Source: Deltaproteobacteria bacterium (GTDB lineage: Bacteria > Bdellovibrionota_C > UBA2361 > JAGFJO01). Taken from it: a stretch of 64,000 nt of DNA. The stretch spans positions 45,909 to 109,908 of the forward strand of contig JAGFJO010000006.1 of the NCBI GenBank assembly GCA_024102635.1, written 5' to 3'. Position numbers and translations under genes: made by a program. Positions 52,146-60,860 of this stretch are shown one piece after another (position 1 is the stretch's first letter; every line of letters begins with the position of its first letter). The notes beneath the pieces are model-generated. The model made no database searches and was not told where the DNA came from. It saw only the letters and a list, made by a program, of their open reading frames with translations.

Positions 52146-53135
52146 ATGAATTCCAATCTACAAGCAGACTGCGACCTAAGTCACGCGATCATCAATTACT
52201 TGAATGCTCTGCTGCGGGGGAAACTTGCATTTTTAAATGCACTACGCCAGGCCGCGCATCCCGACTTCAAAACCGACGACTTGATGCGAACGGAAAAGAG
52301 TCTGGAGACGGTCAGCCGCTGGTCGGCAGATCTTGCAAAGCGCGTCCCACTTATGTCCACAAGCTGGAGTATGCCAGAAACATTCGAGGCCAAGCGGGCT
52401 CTCGACCTGTTTTCAGAGCGTAAAAAGGAGCTAAATCAGCTGGCTGAGAAGCTGGAGCGGATATTATCTCAATCGCCGGAATACCGGTTAGGGGAGGATG
52501 ACGCATTGCTTGTCTCTACCTACGTTCAGTTTGTATACGGGCAAGAAAATTTCATTAAAGGGTATATAGAGTATGGCCGGGAGTTCGGACGGCCCGACTT
52601 TGTGGAGCAGTATTCATTGCAACTACCATCGGCAGCTAACGAGATCGCACTCGCAAACTGGCTTCTCAAAGAGCTGCGTCAACGCGCCACAATAGGTCCC
52701 GAATACGATGCGAGGCTTCATAGCGCCACATATCTTTTGCCCGGATACTTGCGAATGAACGTCAACGATATAAATTCCTTTCTCGCTGTCTTTGAGCCCG
52801 AATTTACTTATGAGATGGCTGACATCTCGCGCGTCGAAGCTCAACGTTGGCAAGAGGCAGGCTTCGCTCCTAAATTAAGCGGATACTGGAATGCTTTCAG
52901 ATTTGCCCCATCTGAGGCGCTACAGTGGCTCAATGCCGGCTTTAACGACGTAGTAATCTCAGCAAGGTGGCGGACTGCAGGCGTAAGTCCAGAAGCGGCG
53001 TTACGCTGGATTGAATGTGGGATTGATCCGGAAACCTCAGCTGTGTGGCATAAAGCGGGGTATGAGCCCTCGCAGGCGGTCTTATATATTGAACGGGGAA
53101 TAACCTCTCCTGAAAAAGCTCGACAAGGCCAATAG
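52146..53135 (+). CDS. hypothetical protein with C-terminal Trp-containing ~25-aa tandem repeats
   Basis: Four C-terminal repeats share a pattern of the form P-x-x-A-x-x-W-x-x-x-G-(F/I/Y)-x-P: QRWQEAGFAPK, ALQWLNAGFND, ALRWIECGIDPE, AVLYIERGITSPE. The N-terminal ~230 aa are helical with no recognised domain. Confidence 0.45.
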   Translation: MNSNLQADCDLSHAIINYLNALLRGKLAFLNALRQAAHPDFKTDDLMRTEKSLETVSRWSADLAKRVPLMSTSWSMPETFEAKRALDLFSERKKELNQLAEKLERILSQSPEYRLGEDDALLVSTYVQFVYGQENFIKGYIEYGREFGRPDFVEQYSLQLPSAANEIALANWLLKELRQRATIGPEYDARLHSATYLLPGYLRMNVNDINSFLAVFEPEFTYEMADISRVEAQRWQEAGFAPKLSGYWNAFRFAPSEALQWLNAGFNDVVISARWRTAGVSPEAALRWIECGIDPETSAVWHKAGYEPSQAVLYIERGITSPEKARQGQ

Positions 53136-53333: not shown

Positions 53334-53576
53334 ATGGATCGGACTCTCACACTAAATAAACTCGGCGCCGGCAGCAAAGCTGTAGTGTGCTCTGTATGCT
53401 GCAAAAATAAGAGTGTCGGCGGAAAACTTTTAGCAATGGGAGTTGTGGCAGGAACCATCATCGAAGTGCTGCGCATTGCACCATTGGGTGATCCTATGAA
53501 GATTAAAGCATTGGGCTATAAACTATCCCTGCGCTTATCCGAGGCAGCACAAATCGAAGTAGTGCCCTTCAGCTAG
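53334..53576 (+). CDS. feoA: ferrous iron transport protein A
   Basis: 80-aa SH3-like FeoA. It is immediately upstream of feoB. Confidence 0.8.
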   Translation: MDRTLTLNKLGAGSKAVVCSVCCKNKSVGGKLLAMGVVAGTIIEVLRIAPLGDPMKIKALGYKLSLRLSEAAQIEVVPFS

Positions 53577-53622: not shown

Positions 53623-55713
53623 GTGGCGCTTGAGGTGTCTCACTTAAAAATCTCAGCCGAACATTCGCTGCCTAGGATCGTACTGGCAGGCAACCCTAAT
53701 TGCGGCAAAACTACTATCTTCAATGCACTTACCGGGCTTAACTATAAAGTAGCCAACTACCCTGGAGTAACGGTCGAGAAGAAAGAAGGGAAAATTTCAT
53801 TCGCTTCGGGAGAACAAGCCGTATTGGTGGATCTACCCGGTACATACACTCTTTCCGGCCACTCGATTGATGAAGCGATTGCCTCCAAAGCCCTCCTAGG
53901 TAAGCTCCGCTCCGAGCCTAGGCCAGACCTCATCATTTCCGTAATAGACGCCAGCAATCTGGAGAGAAATCTATACCTGACCACTCAGCTGCTGGATCTC
54001 AATGTCCCGGTAATCGCTGCATTGAACATGAAGGACTTGGCCGACAAAGACGGAATAGATATAAAGGGCGAGCTGCTGGCCAAAGAGCTCGGAATTCCGG
54101 TAATTGCACTCTCAGCAAATAAAGGAAAAGGAATTTCGCAGCTAAGAGAACAGGCCGGAAAGCTGCTCTCACGTCCCGGTTCCGCTCCTAAGCAATACTC
54201 CTGGCTTCCTCCGTCCTCTGAATATCGCGCCGCTTGCGAAGAACTCGGCAAACTAGAGTTGAACGGAGAGGGCGAAATCGATTCTTCCCTTGCGGTCCTG
54301 CTCGGAAGCTCCCTTTTTTCTGAGGCCTCCGCACCGTCAAATGCAGAGTCGCGCAACAGACTTAACACACTGCGCGCGCAGCTCGAGGGAAGCGGGATTG
54401 ACCCCTTCAGCTTCGAGGCCACGAGCCGTTACACCTGGATTCACGAAATAGTAAAGCGCTCGTGTGTTATTCAGAGCGAGGCCCAAAAGAGACTTTATGA
54501 CCGTATCGACGGGGTGATCACCCACAAGATTTGGGGATCGCTGATTTTCCTTTTGTTAATGGGAGCCATTTTCCAATCGATTTTTGCCTGGGCAAGCTAC
54601 CCAATGGATGCAATCGACAGCGCAACCCAATCGTTCGGCACTATGCTGGGCTCACTGTTGCCCAGCGGGCAGCTGAAGAGCTTGGTAGTGGACGGAATAG
54701 TTGCAGGCGTCGGCGCGGTGATTATATTCGTCCCGCAAATAGCAATTCTATTTTTCTTTCTTGGTCTGCTAGAGGATAGTGGATACCTATCTCGGGCGGC
54801 ATTTTTAATGGATAAAATAATGCGTAAGTTCGGCCTGCAGGGCCGTTCGTTCATCCCTCTCCTGAGCTCTTTTGCTTGCGCCATTCCGGGCATAATGTCG
54901 ACACGGTCAATCCCCTCGTTCGCAGATCGCATGACTACAATTCTTGTGGCGCCACTCATGAGCTGCAGTGCCCGGCTCCCGGTTTACACTTTGTTGATTG
55001 CAGCATTTATCCCGGCCGGAACCGTGGCGGGCTTTCTTTCTCTGCAGGGCTTGGTGCTCTTCAGTATGTACCTGCTCGGTGTACTGGGTGCGGTGGCAGT
55101 GGCTTGGCTGCTGAAGCTCAGTCTGCTGCGCGGAGAACCGGCCATCTTCGTGATGGAGATGCCGCGATTCAGAGCCCCCTCGCTTAGAAAAGTTCTGCAG
55201 GATGTATGGGATAGAGTGCTAATTTTTCTAAAGAGCGCGGGAACGGTTATCCTGGCCTGCTCGATAGTCTTATGGTTCCTAGCCAGCTACCCGAGGGGCG
55301 AAGTGAAGGAATCGTATGCGGGCCAGATAGGAACGGCTATGGAGCCGCTGATAGAACCTTTAGGTTTCAATTGGCAGATAGGTGTAGGAATCCTAAGTTC
55401 CTTCGCCGCCAGGGAGGTTTTCTTAAGTTCCCTCAGCACCGTCTACAATCTGGAGCAGCAAGATGACGAGGGCGACACTCTCTTGCATGTTCTAAAAGAG
55501 AAGCGTGCTCTTGGAGAATTCACCCTCCCAACGGCGCTTTCACTCATGGTCTTTTACGTCTTTGCATGTCAGTGCATGTCCACTCTTGCGGTATGCCGCC
55601 GCGAGACCGGCTCGTGGTGGTGGGTGGCATTTATGTTTACTTACATGACGGCAATGGCATACGCCGCGTCATTCGTTACCTATCATGCGGCGCTGCATTT
55701 TTTCGGGACGTAA
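53623..55713 (+). CDS. feoB: ferrous iron transport protein B
   Basis: N-terminal G-domain GNPNCGKTTIFNALTG and DLPG, followed by a polytopic gate/nucleoside-recognition membrane domain. 696 aa. Confidence 0.95.
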   Translation: MALEVSHLKISAEHSLPRIVLAGNPNCGKTTIFNALTGLNYKVANYPGVTVEKKEGKISFASGEQAVLVDLPGTYTLSGHSIDEAIASKALLGKLRSEPRPDLIISVIDASNLERNLYLTTQLLDLNVPVIAALNMKDLADKDGIDIKGELLAKELGIPVIALSANKGKGISQLREQAGKLLSRPGSAPKQYSWLPPSSEYRAACEELGKLELNGEGEIDSSLAVLLGSSLFSEASAPSNAESRNRLNTLRAQLEGSGIDPFSFEATSRYTWIHEIVKRSCVIQSEAQKRLYDRIDGVITHKIWGSLIFLLLMGAIFQSIFAWASYPMDAIDSATQSFGTMLGSLLPSGQLKSLVVDGIVAGVGAVIIFVPQIAILFFFLGLLEDSGYLSRAAFLMDKIMRKFGLQGRSFIPLLSSFACAIPGIMSTRSIPSFADRMTTILVAPLMSCSARLPVYTLLIAAFIPAGTVAGFLSLQGLVLFSMYLLGVLGAVAVAWLLKLSLLRGEPAIFVMEMPRFRAPSLRKVLQDVWDRVLIFLKSAGTVILACSIVLWFLASYPRGEVKESYAGQIGTAMEPLIEPLGFNWQIGVGILSSFAAREVFLSSLSTVYNLEQQDDEGDTLLHVLKEKRALGEFTLPTALSLMVFYVFACQCMSTLAVCRRETGSWWWVAFMFTYMTAMAYAASFVTYHAALHFFGT

Positions 55714-55755: not shown

Positions 55756-57534
55756 TTATTGCCCCACCCCCGGCCTGGGAGCGAAGACTACAAGAGAGAT
55801 CTCGCCCTTCAGTGTAGTTGTAAATTCTGGGTGAAGTAGAGAAACTTTTTTTTCTGGAAGCAACGCGGCAAGTGGAAAGATATTTTCATCCAAGGAAGAC
55901 ACTCCTTCTTGGGGCATAGGGATAGTACGGACGCGATATCCATTATCCCACAACTCTTCTATCTGATACCAAGTCAGTCTGCGCAGCCCAAGAACCTTAC
56001 CCTGTGCGGGGGATAGATAACGATCCGATTCTCCTTCGTAGGGTGCGACCTGATAAGCATTTGCCCGCCCAAGTATCCTCTCGTACTCCAAAACAGAAAG
56101 AGAGTTAGCTTCGTCGTTCGGGGTCAGAGCGACCATTGCGCCAATGCCTTCCAGATCCAGCTCGTCTTGCACATGTTCGGAGAGAGCGTTCCCGTGATGG
56201 CAAGAGAGGCCTAGCTTACGTCCCTTCCAGATATTTCTAATGTTATTATCGATAAGGGTTACCTTTACTCCGTGCTTCGCCAAAGCTTGAGCAAAGGCGC
56301 GTACAAAGCTCGACGCCCCGACGAACATTACTCCCTGTGGATTGGCCTGGCGCAAAGACAAGGTCCACGCGAGGATTGGAGCGATACTTCCATATAGTAG
56401 TACGGTGCCGATAATAGTAAAAAATATTACCGGCAGCACGTACTCGACACCCGGGATGCCACTTTTGCTCAGGTTAAGAGTGAGAACGGATGCCAGTGAT
56501 GCAGCAACTATTCCGCGCGGAGCAATCGATGAAAGCAAGACCTTTTCACGGATCGAGAGCTTGGAGAGGCTTGTAGAAACGAACACGCTAAAAGGCCGGA
56601 CTATCAGAATTAATGCGGCCAGAAACAGTAAGCTTTCCCAGCCCACAATTGCAAGGTGCTCGGGATCGAGGTTCGCCGAGAGCACTACAAACAAAAATGC
56701 GACCAGCAAAGGTTGCAGATTGGCAGCGAAGTCTAGGATGTTACGGCACGACACTCCACCCTTTTCAGCCACTATCATGCCCGCAAGAGTGGCGGCAAGA
56801 AGCCCGGATTCATGGTAAAAGTAGTTCGAGGCCCAAAATGAAAGCAATACCGTGCAAATAAGAAACGGCAGCTGCAGATGATCGGGAACGAGGTAACGCC
56901 GCAACGCTAATACTATAATCGCTCCGCCTGCTACCCCTAGAACAGCGCCCACCGAGAGGCTGGCGAGCATTCCGTAGAAGATGTGAAGAGGGGTAGCCGC
57001 CATCGCGGTGTCAACGAGCCCTTCGGCAATCAGGATGGCAAGAATGACCCCGATCGGATCAATTAGAATCCCTTCCCATTTAAGTATCGCCCCGAGCGGC
57101 TCTTTAAGCCGAATGGAGTGCAGCAGGGGTATGACGACTGTTGGGCCGGAGACGACCAAGATAGAACCAATTATCAGCGATCCTTGTAGAGGCACGGCGA
57201 GAAGATAGTGGCATGCGGCGGTTATCCCGATAAATGCTACCAACGCTCCGATAGTTATCAGGGCAACGACCGTCCCGCGTCTTCCGCTAAGCTCCTTAAG
57301 ATGTAGTGTAGTTCCCGCTTCAAACAGAATAAGCGCAACCGACATCGACACAATCGGAGTTAGAAGGTCGCCGAATATGGCGCTCGGCGAGACCGCTCCC
57401 ATGAGGGGTCCAAGCACTATCCCGATCAGCAGAAGAAAAACGATGGATGGAATCTGTAAGCGCCAGGCTAACAGCTGCGCTGCTGTCCCGCCCGCGAGGA
57501 TAATTACAATCTGACTGGCGTTATTTAAATTCAT
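55756..57534 (-). CDS. cation:proton antiporter (Na+/H+ exchanger family) with C-terminal TrkA-N/RCK domain
   Basis: An N-terminal membrane domain of about 12 TMs, then a Rossmann segment VMFVGASSFVRAFAQALAKHGVKVTLID and a TrkA-C-like tail. Confidence 0.8.
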   Translation of the reverse strand: MNLNNASQIVIILAGGTAAQLLAWRLQIPSIVFLLLIGIVLGPLMGAVSPSAIFGDLLTPIVSMSVALILFEAGTTLHLKELSGRRGTVVALITIGALVAFIGITAACHYLLAVPLQGSLIIGSILVVSGPTVVIPLLHSIRLKEPLGAILKWEGILIDPIGVILAILIAEGLVDTAMAATPLHIFYGMLASLSVGAVLGVAGGAIIVLALRRYLVPDHLQLPFLICTVLLSFWASNYFYHESGLLAATLAGMIVAEKGGVSCRNILDFAANLQPLLVAFLFVVLSANLDPEHLAIVGWESLLFLAALILIVRPFSVFVSTSLSKLSIREKVLLSSIAPRGIVAASLASVLTLNLSKSGIPGVEYVLPVIFFTIIGTVLLYGSIAPILAWTLSLRQANPQGVMFVGASSFVRAFAQALAKHGVKVTLIDNNIRNIWKGRKLGLSCHHGNALSEHVQDELDLEGIGAMVALTPNDEANSLSVLEYERILGRANAYQVAPYEGESDRYLSPAQGKVLGLRRLTWYQIEELWDNGYRVRTIPMPQEGVSSLDENIFPLAALLPEKKVSLLHPEFTTTLKGEISLVVFAPRPGVGQ

Positions 57535-57782
57535 CGTTTGAATTATATAGTCGTCCGCTCACAGCGAGAGGCATCCCGCCCGCATAAAGATCCTGCAATT
57601 TTTGCTTTCATAATGAAAGATACTAAGAACCTCCCTTAGGCAGCGCCAGCCATGAGAGGGTCGTGACTTTCCGGGTATTTAGAGCCTGTCCCCGCAGCAC
57701 CCATGCACAACTGTTGCAGGGATCGATGTGGAACCGCGCGGCGTTACTTTTTACTTCAGCAATGGTATGATTACCGCACCCA

Positions 57783-57938
57783 ATGCAAGATTTACTGCTA
57801 TTTTTAGCCGTGGCCTTAGCCGCCGCATACCTGCTTTATAGGGCGCGCCGCTCTCTCAGCGGAAAGGGCGGTTGCAACTCATGCAGCCGCTCTCCTGCGA
57901 ACCAGCATCTCATAAACGAAATAAAAAAGAGAAAATGA
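57783..57938 (+). CDS. small membrane protein (TM helix plus GGCxxCS), resembling FeoB-associated Cys-rich membrane protein family
   Basis: 51 aa: MQDLLLFLAVALAAAYLLYRARRSLSGKGGCNSCSRSPANQHLINEIKKRK. Its TGA stop overlaps the queF ATG (aaaATGAgt). It is below the length cutoff of the ORF track. Confidence 0.45.
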   Translation: MQDLLLFLAVALAAAYLLYRARRSLSGKGGCNSCSRSPANQHLINEIKKRK

Positions 57939-58759
57939 GTCTCGACGACCTTCAGCTCGGAAAGCATGTAGACTATCCAACTGAATATGATGCCGGGCTC
58001 CTGCGCGCGATTCCTCGAAAGCGCCCTACAAAGGGTGGAAGCGGTGCGCCCGGCGGTTTTGACCTATGGCGCTGTTACGAGCTTTCTTGGATCGCTCCCA
58101 ATAACCTTCCTGTTAGCGGCGTGGCGGAGATTACCTATGAGAGCTCCACTCCTAATATCGTGGAGTCCAAAAGCCTCAAACTGTTCTTGGGAAGCATGAA
58201 CGGGAAGACCTTTGCAGAATCCGGCGAAGTAACTCGAGAGATTAGCTGCCGCCTGGCGGAAACGGTAGAGGCAAAGGATGTAAAGGTTAGAGTTTTGTCT
58301 CCAGGTCAATGGGGCCTGCTGCTACCTGCGCCGATAGATGGAACATGCCTTGACGAAGCTGATGCGAAAGGCGGCATACTTTCGGAGGATGGTTTACCAG
58401 AGGAGGCTTTCGCTTCAGAACGGAGCGAAGAGACTCTTTACACTAACTGCTTCCGGGCGCTATGCCCGGTAACTCGCCAGCCTGACTGGGCTACCGTCGA
58501 GATCTCCTACCGCGGCCCCAAAATTCGCCGCGAAGCACTGCTGCGCTATCTCATCTCATTCCGGAGTCAGAAGTGCTTTCACGAAGATTGTTGTGAGCGC
58601 ATTTTTGAGCAGCTGCACAAAAGAAAGGATGGCACGACACGAATGGACGAGCTCAAAGTGATCTGCCACTTCATGCGGCGCGGCGGAATTGATCTTACTC
58701 CCGTACGTTTCACTGAGGGCTATAAAACAAGCGGGATTATCCGCACACTGCGACAGTAG
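57935..58759 (+). CDS. queF: NADPH-dependent 7-cyano-7-deazaguanine reductase (bimodular type II)
   Basis: LGKHVDYPTEYDAGLL N-terminus and the catalytic-Cys context CPVTRQPDWATVEISY. Start taken at MSLDDL rather than the track start at 57872. Confidence 0.85.
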   Translation: MSLDDLQLGKHVDYPTEYDAGLLRAIPRKRPTKGGSGAPGGFDLWRCYELSWIAPNNLPVSGVAEITYESSTPNIVESKSLKLFLGSMNGKTFAESGEVTREISCRLAETVEAKDVKVRVLSPGQWGLLLPAPIDGTCLDEADAKGGILSEDGLPEEAFASERSEETLYTNCFRALCPVTRQPDWATVEISYRGPKIRREALLRYLISFRSQKCFHEDCCERIFEQLHKRKDGTTRMDELKVICHFMRRGGIDLTPVRFTEGYKTSGIIRTLRQ

Positions 58760-58763
58760 AATT

Positions 58764-59423
58764 ATGAAAACCGTGGTCTGCTTCTCAGGAGGAATGGATT
58801 CTACAGTGCTTTTATACCACCTGATTGCGGGCGGACACTCCGTTAAGGCGATCTCTGTTGATTACGGCCAGCGGCACAGGAAGGAGCTTGAGTCGGCCAA
58901 ATCCATCTCGCAGAGTCTGAAGATAGACCATCGCATCCTTGATCTTGCCGGTGTGGGAACACTGCTCAAAGGAAGCGCCCTCACGGACAGGTCTGTCACC
59001 GTTCCGCGCGCGGAATACGACGAGCAAAGCCTTAAGGTGACTGTGGTCCCTAATCGCAATATGATCTTTCTCTCGATTGCGGCATCATGGGCTCTCAGCT
59101 CGGGCTGGGACAGTATTGCGATCGCCTCTCACGGCGGAGATCGCGCATTGTATCCCGATTGCCGCAGCGAGTTCCTTGACGCAATGCGGAAGGCCTTGAA
59201 CTTATCCGACTGGAATAATTTGGAGCTGCTGTCGCCATTCACAGGCCTAAGCAAAGCCGAGATCTGCAAACTGGGGAGTGAGCTTGGCGTGCCGTTCGAA
59301 AAAACCTGGAGCTGTTATGAAGGGGGGCCAGCTCACTGCGGGAGCTGCGGCACTTGCCGGGAGCGCCGAAGCGCTTTCAAGGAATGCGGATTATTGGATC
59401 CGGCCCCCTACCACAAGATGTAG
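58764..59423 (+). CDS. queC: 7-cyano-7-deazaguanine synthase
   Basis: PP-loop VVCFSGGMDSTV. C-terminal zinc site CxxC/CGSCGTC. Start at MKTVVCFSGG. Confidence 0.9.
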   Translation: MKTVVCFSGGMDSTVLLYHLIAGGHSVKAISVDYGQRHRKELESAKSISQSLKIDHRILDLAGVGTLLKGSALTDRSVTVPRAEYDEQSLKVTVVPNRNMIFLSIAASWALSSGWDSIAIASHGGDRALYPDCRSEFLDAMRKALNLSDWNNLELLSPFTGLSKAEICKLGSELGVPFEKTWSCYEGGPAHCGSCGTCRERRSAFKECGLLDPAPYHKM

Positions 59424-59472: not shown

Positions 59473-60165
59473 GTGATATTCGTTGCTTTTCTTATGAGCG
59501 CAAATCGTTCGGTGCGCCTGGCGCACAACATTATAGATCGACCGAAGCTGGACCTCCCCGCTGCGGGCCAGTTTGCAATTAACGAAATCTTCTGTTCCCT
59601 GCAAGGAGAAGGTGCGCAAGCCGGGCGCGCTATGGTTTTCCTCAGATTTTCTCAGTGTAATTTGCGATGCTCCGTCAGTAACTCCGGGTTCGACTGTGAC
59701 ACCGACTTTTCTGGGAAGCGCGTCATGACTCAGTCGCAGATTTTCAGTGAGCTTTCAGCCATGAAGCTTCAAACCGATTGGCTACTGCTAACCGGCGGCG
59801 AACCGGCGCTTCAAGTGACACCTGATTTCCTTGGCGCCTTGAAAAACGCAGGATGGAAGATTGCTATCGAAACAAACGGGACTATAAGGCTGCCGGAGGG
59901 TTTCGACTGGATAACACTTTCACCAAAAAGCGCAGAACACACCATTAGGCAGCGGCACGCCGATGAAGTGAAATATGTATTAAGCGAAGGCATGTCACTT
60001 CCTCGACCGAGCATTGCCGCGAAACATTATTTTGTATCTCCCGCCTTTCAGCCGGACGGCACCCTGCGCAGAGAGGACCTGGAGTGGTGCATAAATCTCG
60101 TAAAACAGGCGCCGGACAAATGGAGACTCTCGATTCAGCTTCACAAATTGATCGGAATCCGGTAG
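59473..60165 (+). CDS. queE: 7-carboxy-7-deazaguanine synthase (radical SAM)
   Basis: INEIFCSLQGEGAQAGRAMVFLRFSQCNLRC, the QueE CxxxCxxC-variant cluster motif. Start uncertain. Confidence 0.85.
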   Translation: MIFVAFLMSANRSVRLAHNIIDRPKLDLPAAGQFAINEIFCSLQGEGAQAGRAMVFLRFSQCNLRCSVSNSGFDCDTDFSGKRVMTQSQIFSELSAMKLQTDWLLLTGGEPALQVTPDFLGALKNAGWKIAIETNGTIRLPEGFDWITLSPKSAEHTIRQRHADEVKYVLSEGMSLPRPSIAAKHYFVSPAFQPDGTLRREDLEWCINLVKQAPDKWRLSIQLHKLIGIR

Positions 60166-60860
60166 CTCACGCACCTAAGCCTTGTATCAGCAAGCCGGCG
60201 GCAATAGTCCGAAAGGCTCTGCGAGCAGCGATTCTGATTGTCGCCGTCGATATTGCGCTTACGGCGCTTTACCTTCCGTTCTCTGCCTATCTCATCTCGG
60301 CTCATAAACTAAGTGGCACCGTAGATGCAGCGCTAATATTCTTCGGCGAAAGCGGGCCTTATGAAGGTCTATCAGCGGACACCTTGCGGGTTGTCGAGCA
60401 TGCAGCGCAGCTGTATCACCAAAAGAAGGTGCGCCATGCTGCCTGCCTGGGGGGTGGAAAGCTGCCGGGCCCGGTTAGCGGGGCGCAATTAATGTGCCGA
60501 GCGTTAGCCGCTCGCAGCGTTCCAGCTGAAGCGTTAAAGGTGGATAAAGGCTCTTGGGATACCATAACTAATATGAACGAAGCGCGGCAGCTGATGAATG
60601 TCCACGGATGGACGAGCGCTGCACTCGTCAGCTCGCCCTATCACCTGCCTAGAATATTGTATCTTGCAAATAATCCGAAATGGGCTTTCAGCACTGCACC
60701 GCCCCATTCTCCACTTTCTATTAAGCTCTCCACTTTGCTAAGGAGGTGGCGCGAGGTGAATCATGAATTTGCTGCATGGGGCGCAATGGCGCTGCTGCCG
60801 CGCGGCTGGTATGAAGCAGCTATCGCTTGGTACAGGGATAGAGGGCTGAATATCATTTAG
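60084..60860 (+). CDS. DUF218 (YdcF/SanA/ElyC-like) domain protein
   Basis: N-terminal TM, then ALIFFGESGPYEGLSADTLRVVEHAAQLY ... LGGGK, typical of DUF218. The 5' end overlaps the queE 3' end. There is no in-frame ATG after the queE stop, so the start is uncertain. Confidence 0.55.
   Translation: MVHKSRKTGAGQMETLDSASQIDRNPVAHAPKPCISKPAAIVRKALRAAILIVAVDIALTALYLPFSAYLISAHKLSGTVDAALIFFGESGPYEGLSADTLRVVEHAAQLYHQKKVRHAACLGGGKLPGPVSGAQLMCRALAARSVPAEALKVDKGSWDTITNMNEARQLMNVHGWTSAALVSSPYHLPRILYLANNPKWAFSTAPPHSPLSIKLSTLLRRWREVNHEFAAWGAMALLPRGWYEAAIAWYRDRGLNII

Follow-up and report, generated by a model that had tools for sequence, protein, structure and literature searches.

A divergent, two-cysteine relative of the FeoB-associated membrane peptides is probably encoded by an unannotated small ORF between feoAB and queF-queC-queE

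The closest described counterparts of the peptide studied here are the FeoB-associated cysteine-rich membrane proteins (PF12669), which are about 40–90 amino acids long and have an N-terminal transmembrane helix followed by basic residues. They usually contain four to six cysteines, typically arranged as CGCGCSGC...C. We take this to be the family once called the 'virus attachment protein p12' family. Its cysteine motif has been given as Cx3-5Cx2-3Cx6-8C, and its genes tend to be found in the absence of feoC (PMC8749426). Being encoded beside feoB, or fused to it, counts as a further mark of the family. The literature on PF12669 describes both an association with iron regulation and this occurrence in the absence of feoC (PMC8749426, PMC10434189, PMC9478572, PMC10669500, PMC8980893); the ties to iron are at the transcript level only (PMC10434189, PMC9478572, PMC10669500).

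Two other described systems invite comparison. FeoC, encoded with feoAB in the gammaproteobacterial feoABC systems, is likewise a Feo accessory; it is small, often bears cysteines, and is a proposed binder of Fe-S clusters or metal. However, FeoC is soluble, with a winged-helix fold, rather than a membrane peptide, and it has no sequence relationship to the peptide described below. The second comparison is one of position. The preQ1 riboswitches (classes I–III) sit immediately upstream of que biosynthesis genes, and in the locus presented here that same position is held by an ORF for a PF12669-like peptide.

We analyzed a window of 64,000 nucleotides, which is the whole stretch of DNA presented. 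The small ORF lies at 57783–57938 on the forward strand. It begins with an ATG at 57783, the earliest start codon past the preceding in-frame stop, and ends with a TGA at 57936–57938. Its 51 codons encode the product MQDLLLFLAVALAAAYLLYRARRSLSGKGGCNSCSRSPANQHLINEIKKRK, which we describe as a divergent PF12669-like single-pass membrane peptide. This peptide was missing from a collection of 5.8 billion proteins that does hold QueF of the same contig, and thus the ORF is unannotated. The original prediction had reported an untracked 51-amino acid ORF at this site, and the reading frame was indeed open throughout.

The features that were first described in the product, namely one transmembrane helix, a basic stretch and the sequence KGGCNSCS, were all recovered. 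Hydropathy, AlphaFold2 and the family alignment place the predicted helix at codons 4–19 (LLLFLAVALAAAYLLY; 57792–57839, forward strand), followed by a basic RARRS segment. Mean Kyte-Doolittle hydropathy was 2.5 over residues 4–19, whereas the rest of the peptide held 9 K/R versus 1 D/E. AlphaFold2, run with the family alignment, gave a helix at residues 3–26 (pLDDT ~94), a low-confidence cysteine loop and a weaker C-terminal helix. The stretch GKGGCNSCS occupies codons 27–35 (57861–57887, forward strand) and contains both cysteines of the peptide, C31 (57873–57875) and C34 (57882–57884). Hydropathy and charge fit a single pass with the N-terminus out and the C-terminus in. By the positive-inside rule, the 2–3 N-terminal residues would face outward and the helix would span residues ~3–20, leaving a cytoplasmic basic tail that would carry one CxxC and then a short amphipathic or basic C-terminus.

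We compared the peptide with the PF12669 family. In the Pfam search, PF12669 was the sole match, with 23.6 bits (E = 6e-5) against a gathering score of 27. The original prediction had named an NCBIfam FeoB-associated model as a check; no FeoB-associated model of NCBIfam release 20 matched the peptide, and the models that did match, weakly and owing to transmembrane composition, were those for C-terminal sorting signals. Because short transmembrane peptides can match short transmembrane models by composition alone, three composition controls were run. None of 100 shuffles of the peptide, in which the compositions of the transmembrane block and the tail block were kept separately, matched PF12669 in Pfam, even at E ≤ 0.1. 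An HMM of 119 real PF12669 members scored the ORF at 28.5 bits, a value with a slight bias towards ORF look-alikes since the ORF and invented probes were part of the profile with which the members were gathered. With the same HMM, the best of 2000 block shuffles reached 15.4 bits, and the 687 other ORFs of 25–120 amino acids in the window reached at most 4.6 bits. Among all 688 small ORFs in the window, only the one at 57783–57938 resembled PF12669 by this HMM.

The members had been gathered by a word-indexed search seeded with the ORF peptide and six invented family-like probes. The search returned 120 database proteins, of which 119 carried a precomputed PF12669 label and several were so named by NCBI; the HMM was built from the real Pfam-labelled database proteins alone, with the invented probes left out. 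The Pfam score and its shuffle control are independent of this gathering search. Lastly, hhalign of the ORF against 24 real PF12669 members gave a probability of 98%. We concluded that the resemblance of the predicted peptide to PF12669, as judged from its sequence, appears specific and exceeds chance or composition, though it is sub-threshold. The proposed FeoB-associated identity can therefore be kept only in part: the similarity to PF12669 is specific, but the score of 23.6 bits lies under 27, and the cysteine motif is cut to a CxxC.

The alignment revealed where the resemblance lies. At 51 amino acids the ORF peptide fits the family plan in length and layout, and its N-terminal MQ corresponds to the family's N-terminal MQ, such that the start coincides exactly. 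Within the transmembrane segment it keeps the invariant A13 and the aromatic residue at position 16. Its basic juxtamembrane RR and its GKGG align with PF12669 members, and C31 and C34 align with the nearly invariant C-x-x-C pair of the family. Thus, the ORF shares with the FeoB-associated cysteine-rich family a length of ~50 amino acids, the MQ start, one transmembrane helix, RR, GKGG and C-x-x-C, as well as a feoAB neighborhood and a specific profile similarity. In contrast, it has only two cysteines, is below the Pfam gathering score, and is without both the upstream nearly invariant cysteine and the distal cysteine of the family, so that of the published motif C31-x2-C34 alone is present. 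It also differs in having an opposite-strand antiporter gene between itself and feoB, in being the first cistron before queF-queC-queE, and in its basic C-terminal tail; these last ~15 residues have no counterpart in the family alignment, and the DNA that encodes them is the A-rich initiation region of queF.

The nearest relative of the ORF peptide was P0214, a 65-amino acid protein from JGI metagenome 3300031555 that is 54% identical to the ORF over 37 columns in hhalign (AAVYLLGRLRRTLSGKGGC in P0214 versus AAAYLLYRARRSLSGKGGC in the ORF peptide). P0214 is also under the Pfam threshold, at 25.9 bits. A second protein of the same sub-clade, P0168 (54 amino acids), begins with MQDLL like the ORF peptide. 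Both P0214 and P0168 retain 5–7 cysteines, whereas the ORF peptide has 2. Their neighbors are unrelated to those of the ORF (an AAA_2 ATPase; RNase H and DJ-1), and no que genes lie nearby.

The genes for ferrous iron transport are found upstream of the ORF on the same strand. Gene feoA is at 53334–53576 (PF04023, 63 bits) and feoB at 53623–55713, with FeoB_N, Gate and FeoB_C domains. Between feoB and the small ORF, a CPA-type cation/proton antiporter gene with a TrkA_N domain occupies 55756–57534 on the reverse strand, and the distance from the feoB stop to the ATG of the ORF is 2069 bases (2.07 kb). We considered whether the antiporter gene is a recent insertion and rejected the idea, given that no flanking repeats of note were found, its GC content is like that of its neighbors, and it presents no compositional anomaly.

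We sampled 25 PF12669 loci for comparison: those of 3 most-similar or representative members, 8 from species genomes, 11 from metagenomes, and 3 of reduced-cysteine members. Gene feoB was no more than 3.8 kb away in 21 of the 25, a tally that is biased towards typical family members since the species-genome and metagenome loci were found via the CGCGCSGC pattern, and in which two loci (L015 and L026) are possibly one organism. Two loci, those of P0214 and P0168, were clearly without feoB, and in two the contigs were too short. The usual site of the PF12669 gene was directly after feoB; five loci had it between feoA and feoB. Intervening genes also occurred: in L008 the small gene is 1.3 kb from feoB with a 404-amino acid ORF between them, whereas the gap in L017 measures 3.8 kb and contains two ORFs. 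Because the ORF is on the same strand as feoB, 2.07 kb past it, and because genes intervene in other family loci as well, the ORF is still in the feo neighborhood. The original prediction had called the ORF not adjacent to feoB, a wording that understates this setting. The layout in the window, with feoA-feoB, an opposite-strand gene and then the ORF, falls within the feo-linked range of the family. Assuming a multi-megabase genome, we estimate that a family member would come to lie ~2 kb from feoB by chance about 1 time in 1000. This proximity may carry less weight than it appears to, given that no feoB was found near P0214 or P0168, two of the family proteins that most resemble the ORF peptide; their location away from feoB means that Feo linkage is not obligatory in the sub-clade.

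Several other arrangements were seen among the sampled loci. Two orphan PF12669 genes (L003, 6001–6198; L006, 3805–3969) have no feoB within 4–6 kb. One of them precedes an AAA_2-type ATPase gene and a gene for a multi-ferredoxin-domain protein, and the other lies between RNase H and DJ-1/PfpI genes; the name 'FeoB-associated' therefore does not fit every member of the family. In several Desulfobacterota-like loci (L012, L016, L019, L020, L025) the PF12669 gene is upstream of feoB, whereas the literature says downstream; in L012, L016, L019 and L025 it follows feoA. Fusions of FeoA with a metalloregulator were observed upstream of feoB at 2036–2806 of L027 (DtxR-type, Fe_dep_repress) and at 1724–2416 of L028 (FUR).

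Downstream, the ORF runs directly into the queuosine genes. Gene queF (57935–58759, forward strand) encodes a 274-amino acid bimodular NADPH-dependent preQ0 reductase with QueF_N and QueF domains (PF14819, 79.8 bits; PF14489, 76.9 bits; both over cutoffs). TIGR03138 aligned with QueF residues 3–274 at 231 bits, under the equivalog cutoff of 293, and the 274-amino acid protein read from the ATG at 57935 was identical to NCBI protein P0001. The stop of the small ORF overlaps the queF start in the sequence ATGA (57935–57938, forward strand), according to the ORF calls and the TIGR03138 alignment. Because QueF aligns with TIGR03138 from residue 3, this overlap is real, and the claim of an ATGA junction stands. 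Gene queC follows on the forward strand at 58764–59423 (PF06508, 230 bits; TIGR00364, 212 bits, above cutoff), and then queE, a radical SAM gene of the Cx14CxxC type, at ~59473–60165 on the same strand (TIGR04508, 146 bits). The longest-ORF start of queE, a GTG at 59473, probably lies upstream of the true start, since the match to the family model does not begin until residue 35. A DUF218 gene comes after queE at 60084–60860 (forward strand, longest-ORF start); at that start it overlaps queE by 82 nt, and its true start is probably later. One promoter-like site, TTTAAA-16-TATAGT, was found at 57524–57551 on the forward strand, and no terminator-like site was seen between the intergenic region and queF.

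The explanation that we favor, and that we hold to be probably correct, is that the ORF represents a real but unannotated gene encoding a feoAB accessory peptide, displaced from its usual site and now heading queF-queC-queE, where its link to the que genes reflects gene order rather than pathway. A local rearrangement would have moved the Feo accessory gene to become the first cistron of the queF-queC-queE transcript, with which it would be co-transcribed. The ORF would be translated, and its product would insert into the inner membrane with a cytoplasmic C-terminus. By analogy with its relatives, the peptide would most likely act there with FeoB; the same analogy suggests that the CxxC thiol pair may bind or sense metal or redox state. 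Ribosomes that end the peptide could then reinitiate on queF, whose initiation region is only weak and A-rich. The ORF thus appears to be a missed small gene, a divergent two-cysteine member of a known family with an idiosyncratic coupling to queF. It would be a concrete small membrane-protein gene, just under the Pfam threshold, that annotation pipelines missed, and it would suggest that the PF12669 clade reaches two-cysteine forms and that its genes can drift from feo operons into unrelated transcripts.

A PF12669 descendant need not still be functional, and the ORF could be a decaying relic that has shed most of its cysteines and whose frame stays open only because it is now the 5' leader of queF, perhaps as a mere upstream ORF that loads ribosomes onto that gene. 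We regard this as unlikely. The sub-threshold Pfam score and the loss of one nearly invariant cysteine and of the distal cysteine would suit decay; nonetheless, the peptide has kept its transmembrane helix, its basic juxtamembrane motif and the core C-x-x-C, and accepted members with 2–3 cysteines exist, some of them directly after feoB. One PF12669-labelled member with 2 cysteines only, P0240, scored 31 bits. A relic could likewise explain why the C-terminal 15 residues are unaligned and encoded by the A-rich queF initiation region, but the frame is intact over 51 codons and its start is exactly the family N-terminus. Every ORF that is open in that frame would end in ATGA automatically.

Decay would also be consistent with the low codon-usage score of the ORF and its lack of a Shine-Dalgarno sequence. 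The ORF frame had the best codon-usage score of the six frames; this score was at the ~4th percentile of real-gene windows and ranked 69th of 281 small ORFs. Codon usage in this 51% GC genome is too weakly discriminating to decide on the ORF. Similarly, there is no Shine-Dalgarno sequence before the ORF ATG. The same is true of feoA, feoB, queC and the antiporter gene, which makes its absence at the ORF uninformative. Close relatives were sought at both the protein and the DNA level. An exhaustive phmmer search with the ORF peptide against 1.84 billion representatives gave no match, and a word-indexed single-sequence search returned no homologue. DNA-level scans of genome contigs with QueF and of metagenome contigs with the ORF peptide found no relative, and the best relative of the window's QueF was 45% identical. 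The lineage is isolated and poorly sampled, which limits comparative tests in the window.

The location of the ORF raised the further idea that the peptide has been recruited to 7-deazaguanine/queuosine metabolism, as a membrane tether, as a metal or thiol donor (to QueE or QueC), or as an accessory of a preQ0/preQ1 transporter. QueE ([4Fe-4S]) and QueC (Zn) are metalloenzymes, and the peptide has a CxxC; moreover, the 4-nt stop/start overlap with queF and the lack of a terminator between the two would be compatible with a shared function. Translational coupling of the ORF to queF is plausible from the ATGA overlap, but the overlap is weak evidence for it: when a gene starts with ATGA, its TGA necessarily closes whatever ORF is open in that frame. 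The comparative data argue against recruitment. None of the 25 PF12669 loci had queF, queC or queE within ~5 kb of the family gene, and none of five loci from four of the nearest QueF relatives had a PF12669-like ORF. For the four queF loci that have DNA, all small ORFs in six frames, whether or not they had been called, were also scanned with an HMM, and nothing PF12669-like emerged. The loci of the nearest QueF relatives were arranged as queC-queF, as queE-queC-queF, or with a solitary queF, and even in the closest que cluster the gene order differs, queE being opposite to queC-queF. Finally, the ORF still lies near feoAB. Recruitment is thus very improbable in our judgment, and the association with the que genes looks like a lineage-specific accident of gene order rather than a pathway link.

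The association with the preQ1/7-deazapurine pathway, which the original prediction had called unexpected, recurred in neither the 25 family loci nor the 5 related queF loci; among these more distant relatives the arrangement is not conserved. A more specific form of the idea holds that a cysteine-reduced offshoot of the family was co-opted as a membrane partner of preQ0/preQ1 synthesis, tethering QueF or QueE or handing over metal or thiol, with translational coupling setting the stoichiometry; we give it slightly less credence again, and consider it highly improbable. If it were true that the peptide acts with the que enzymes, it would be a new accessory factor, but current evidence points to gene-order happenstance. 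Under the reading that we favor, a peptide gene and not a riboswitch precedes this queF, which removes a false lead for the queuosine field.

We also examined the divergent intergenic region, or presumed leader, at 57535–57782 (248 bp). Rfam gave no match at E ≤ 10 across 57400–58100, and no match at gathering score in the whole window. A preQ1 riboswitch or other Rfam family upstream of queF was rejected on these results, in agreement with the original report that no preQ1 riboswitch was recognizable there. A structured leader RNA was rejected as well, since the 246-nt leader folded no better than shuffles (z = 0.27); the alternative raised at the outset, that the region is a conserved RNA, was thus checked and gained no support from either the Rfam search or the fold. 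A chance ORF in a non-coding queF leader, or an unrecognized regulatory RNA, would be in keeping with an ORF that is short, has weak codon statistics, was not called by annotators and has no single-sequence homologue in 1.84 billion representatives, but this is scarcely credible for the sole ORF of 688 in the window to match PF12669, with a match that is specific and not driven by composition, with feoB 2 kb away, and with an upstream region that has neither an Rfam match at E ≤ 10 nor an unusual fold (z = 0.27).

Operators were sought in the same region. A Fur box or other operator common to the upstream regions of feoA and the ORF was rejected, as candidates were no better than shuffles. The stretch that separates the antiporter gene from the small ORF contains a perfect 7-1-7 palindrome, CTTTCATAATGAAAG, at 57605–57619, which has no second copy in the window. 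It does not resemble a Fur box (11 of 19 matches, a level that shuffles also reach), and it may be an operator for some regulator.

At the other end of the feo cluster, just upstream of feoA, a 329-amino acid ORF without a Pfam match lies at 52146–53135 on the forward strand. The C-terminal third of its product carries tandem copies of a ~20-residue motif, W..AG..P..A..W, examples of which are RWQEAGFAP, QWLNAGFND, RWRTAGVSP, RWIECGIDP and VWHKAGYEP.
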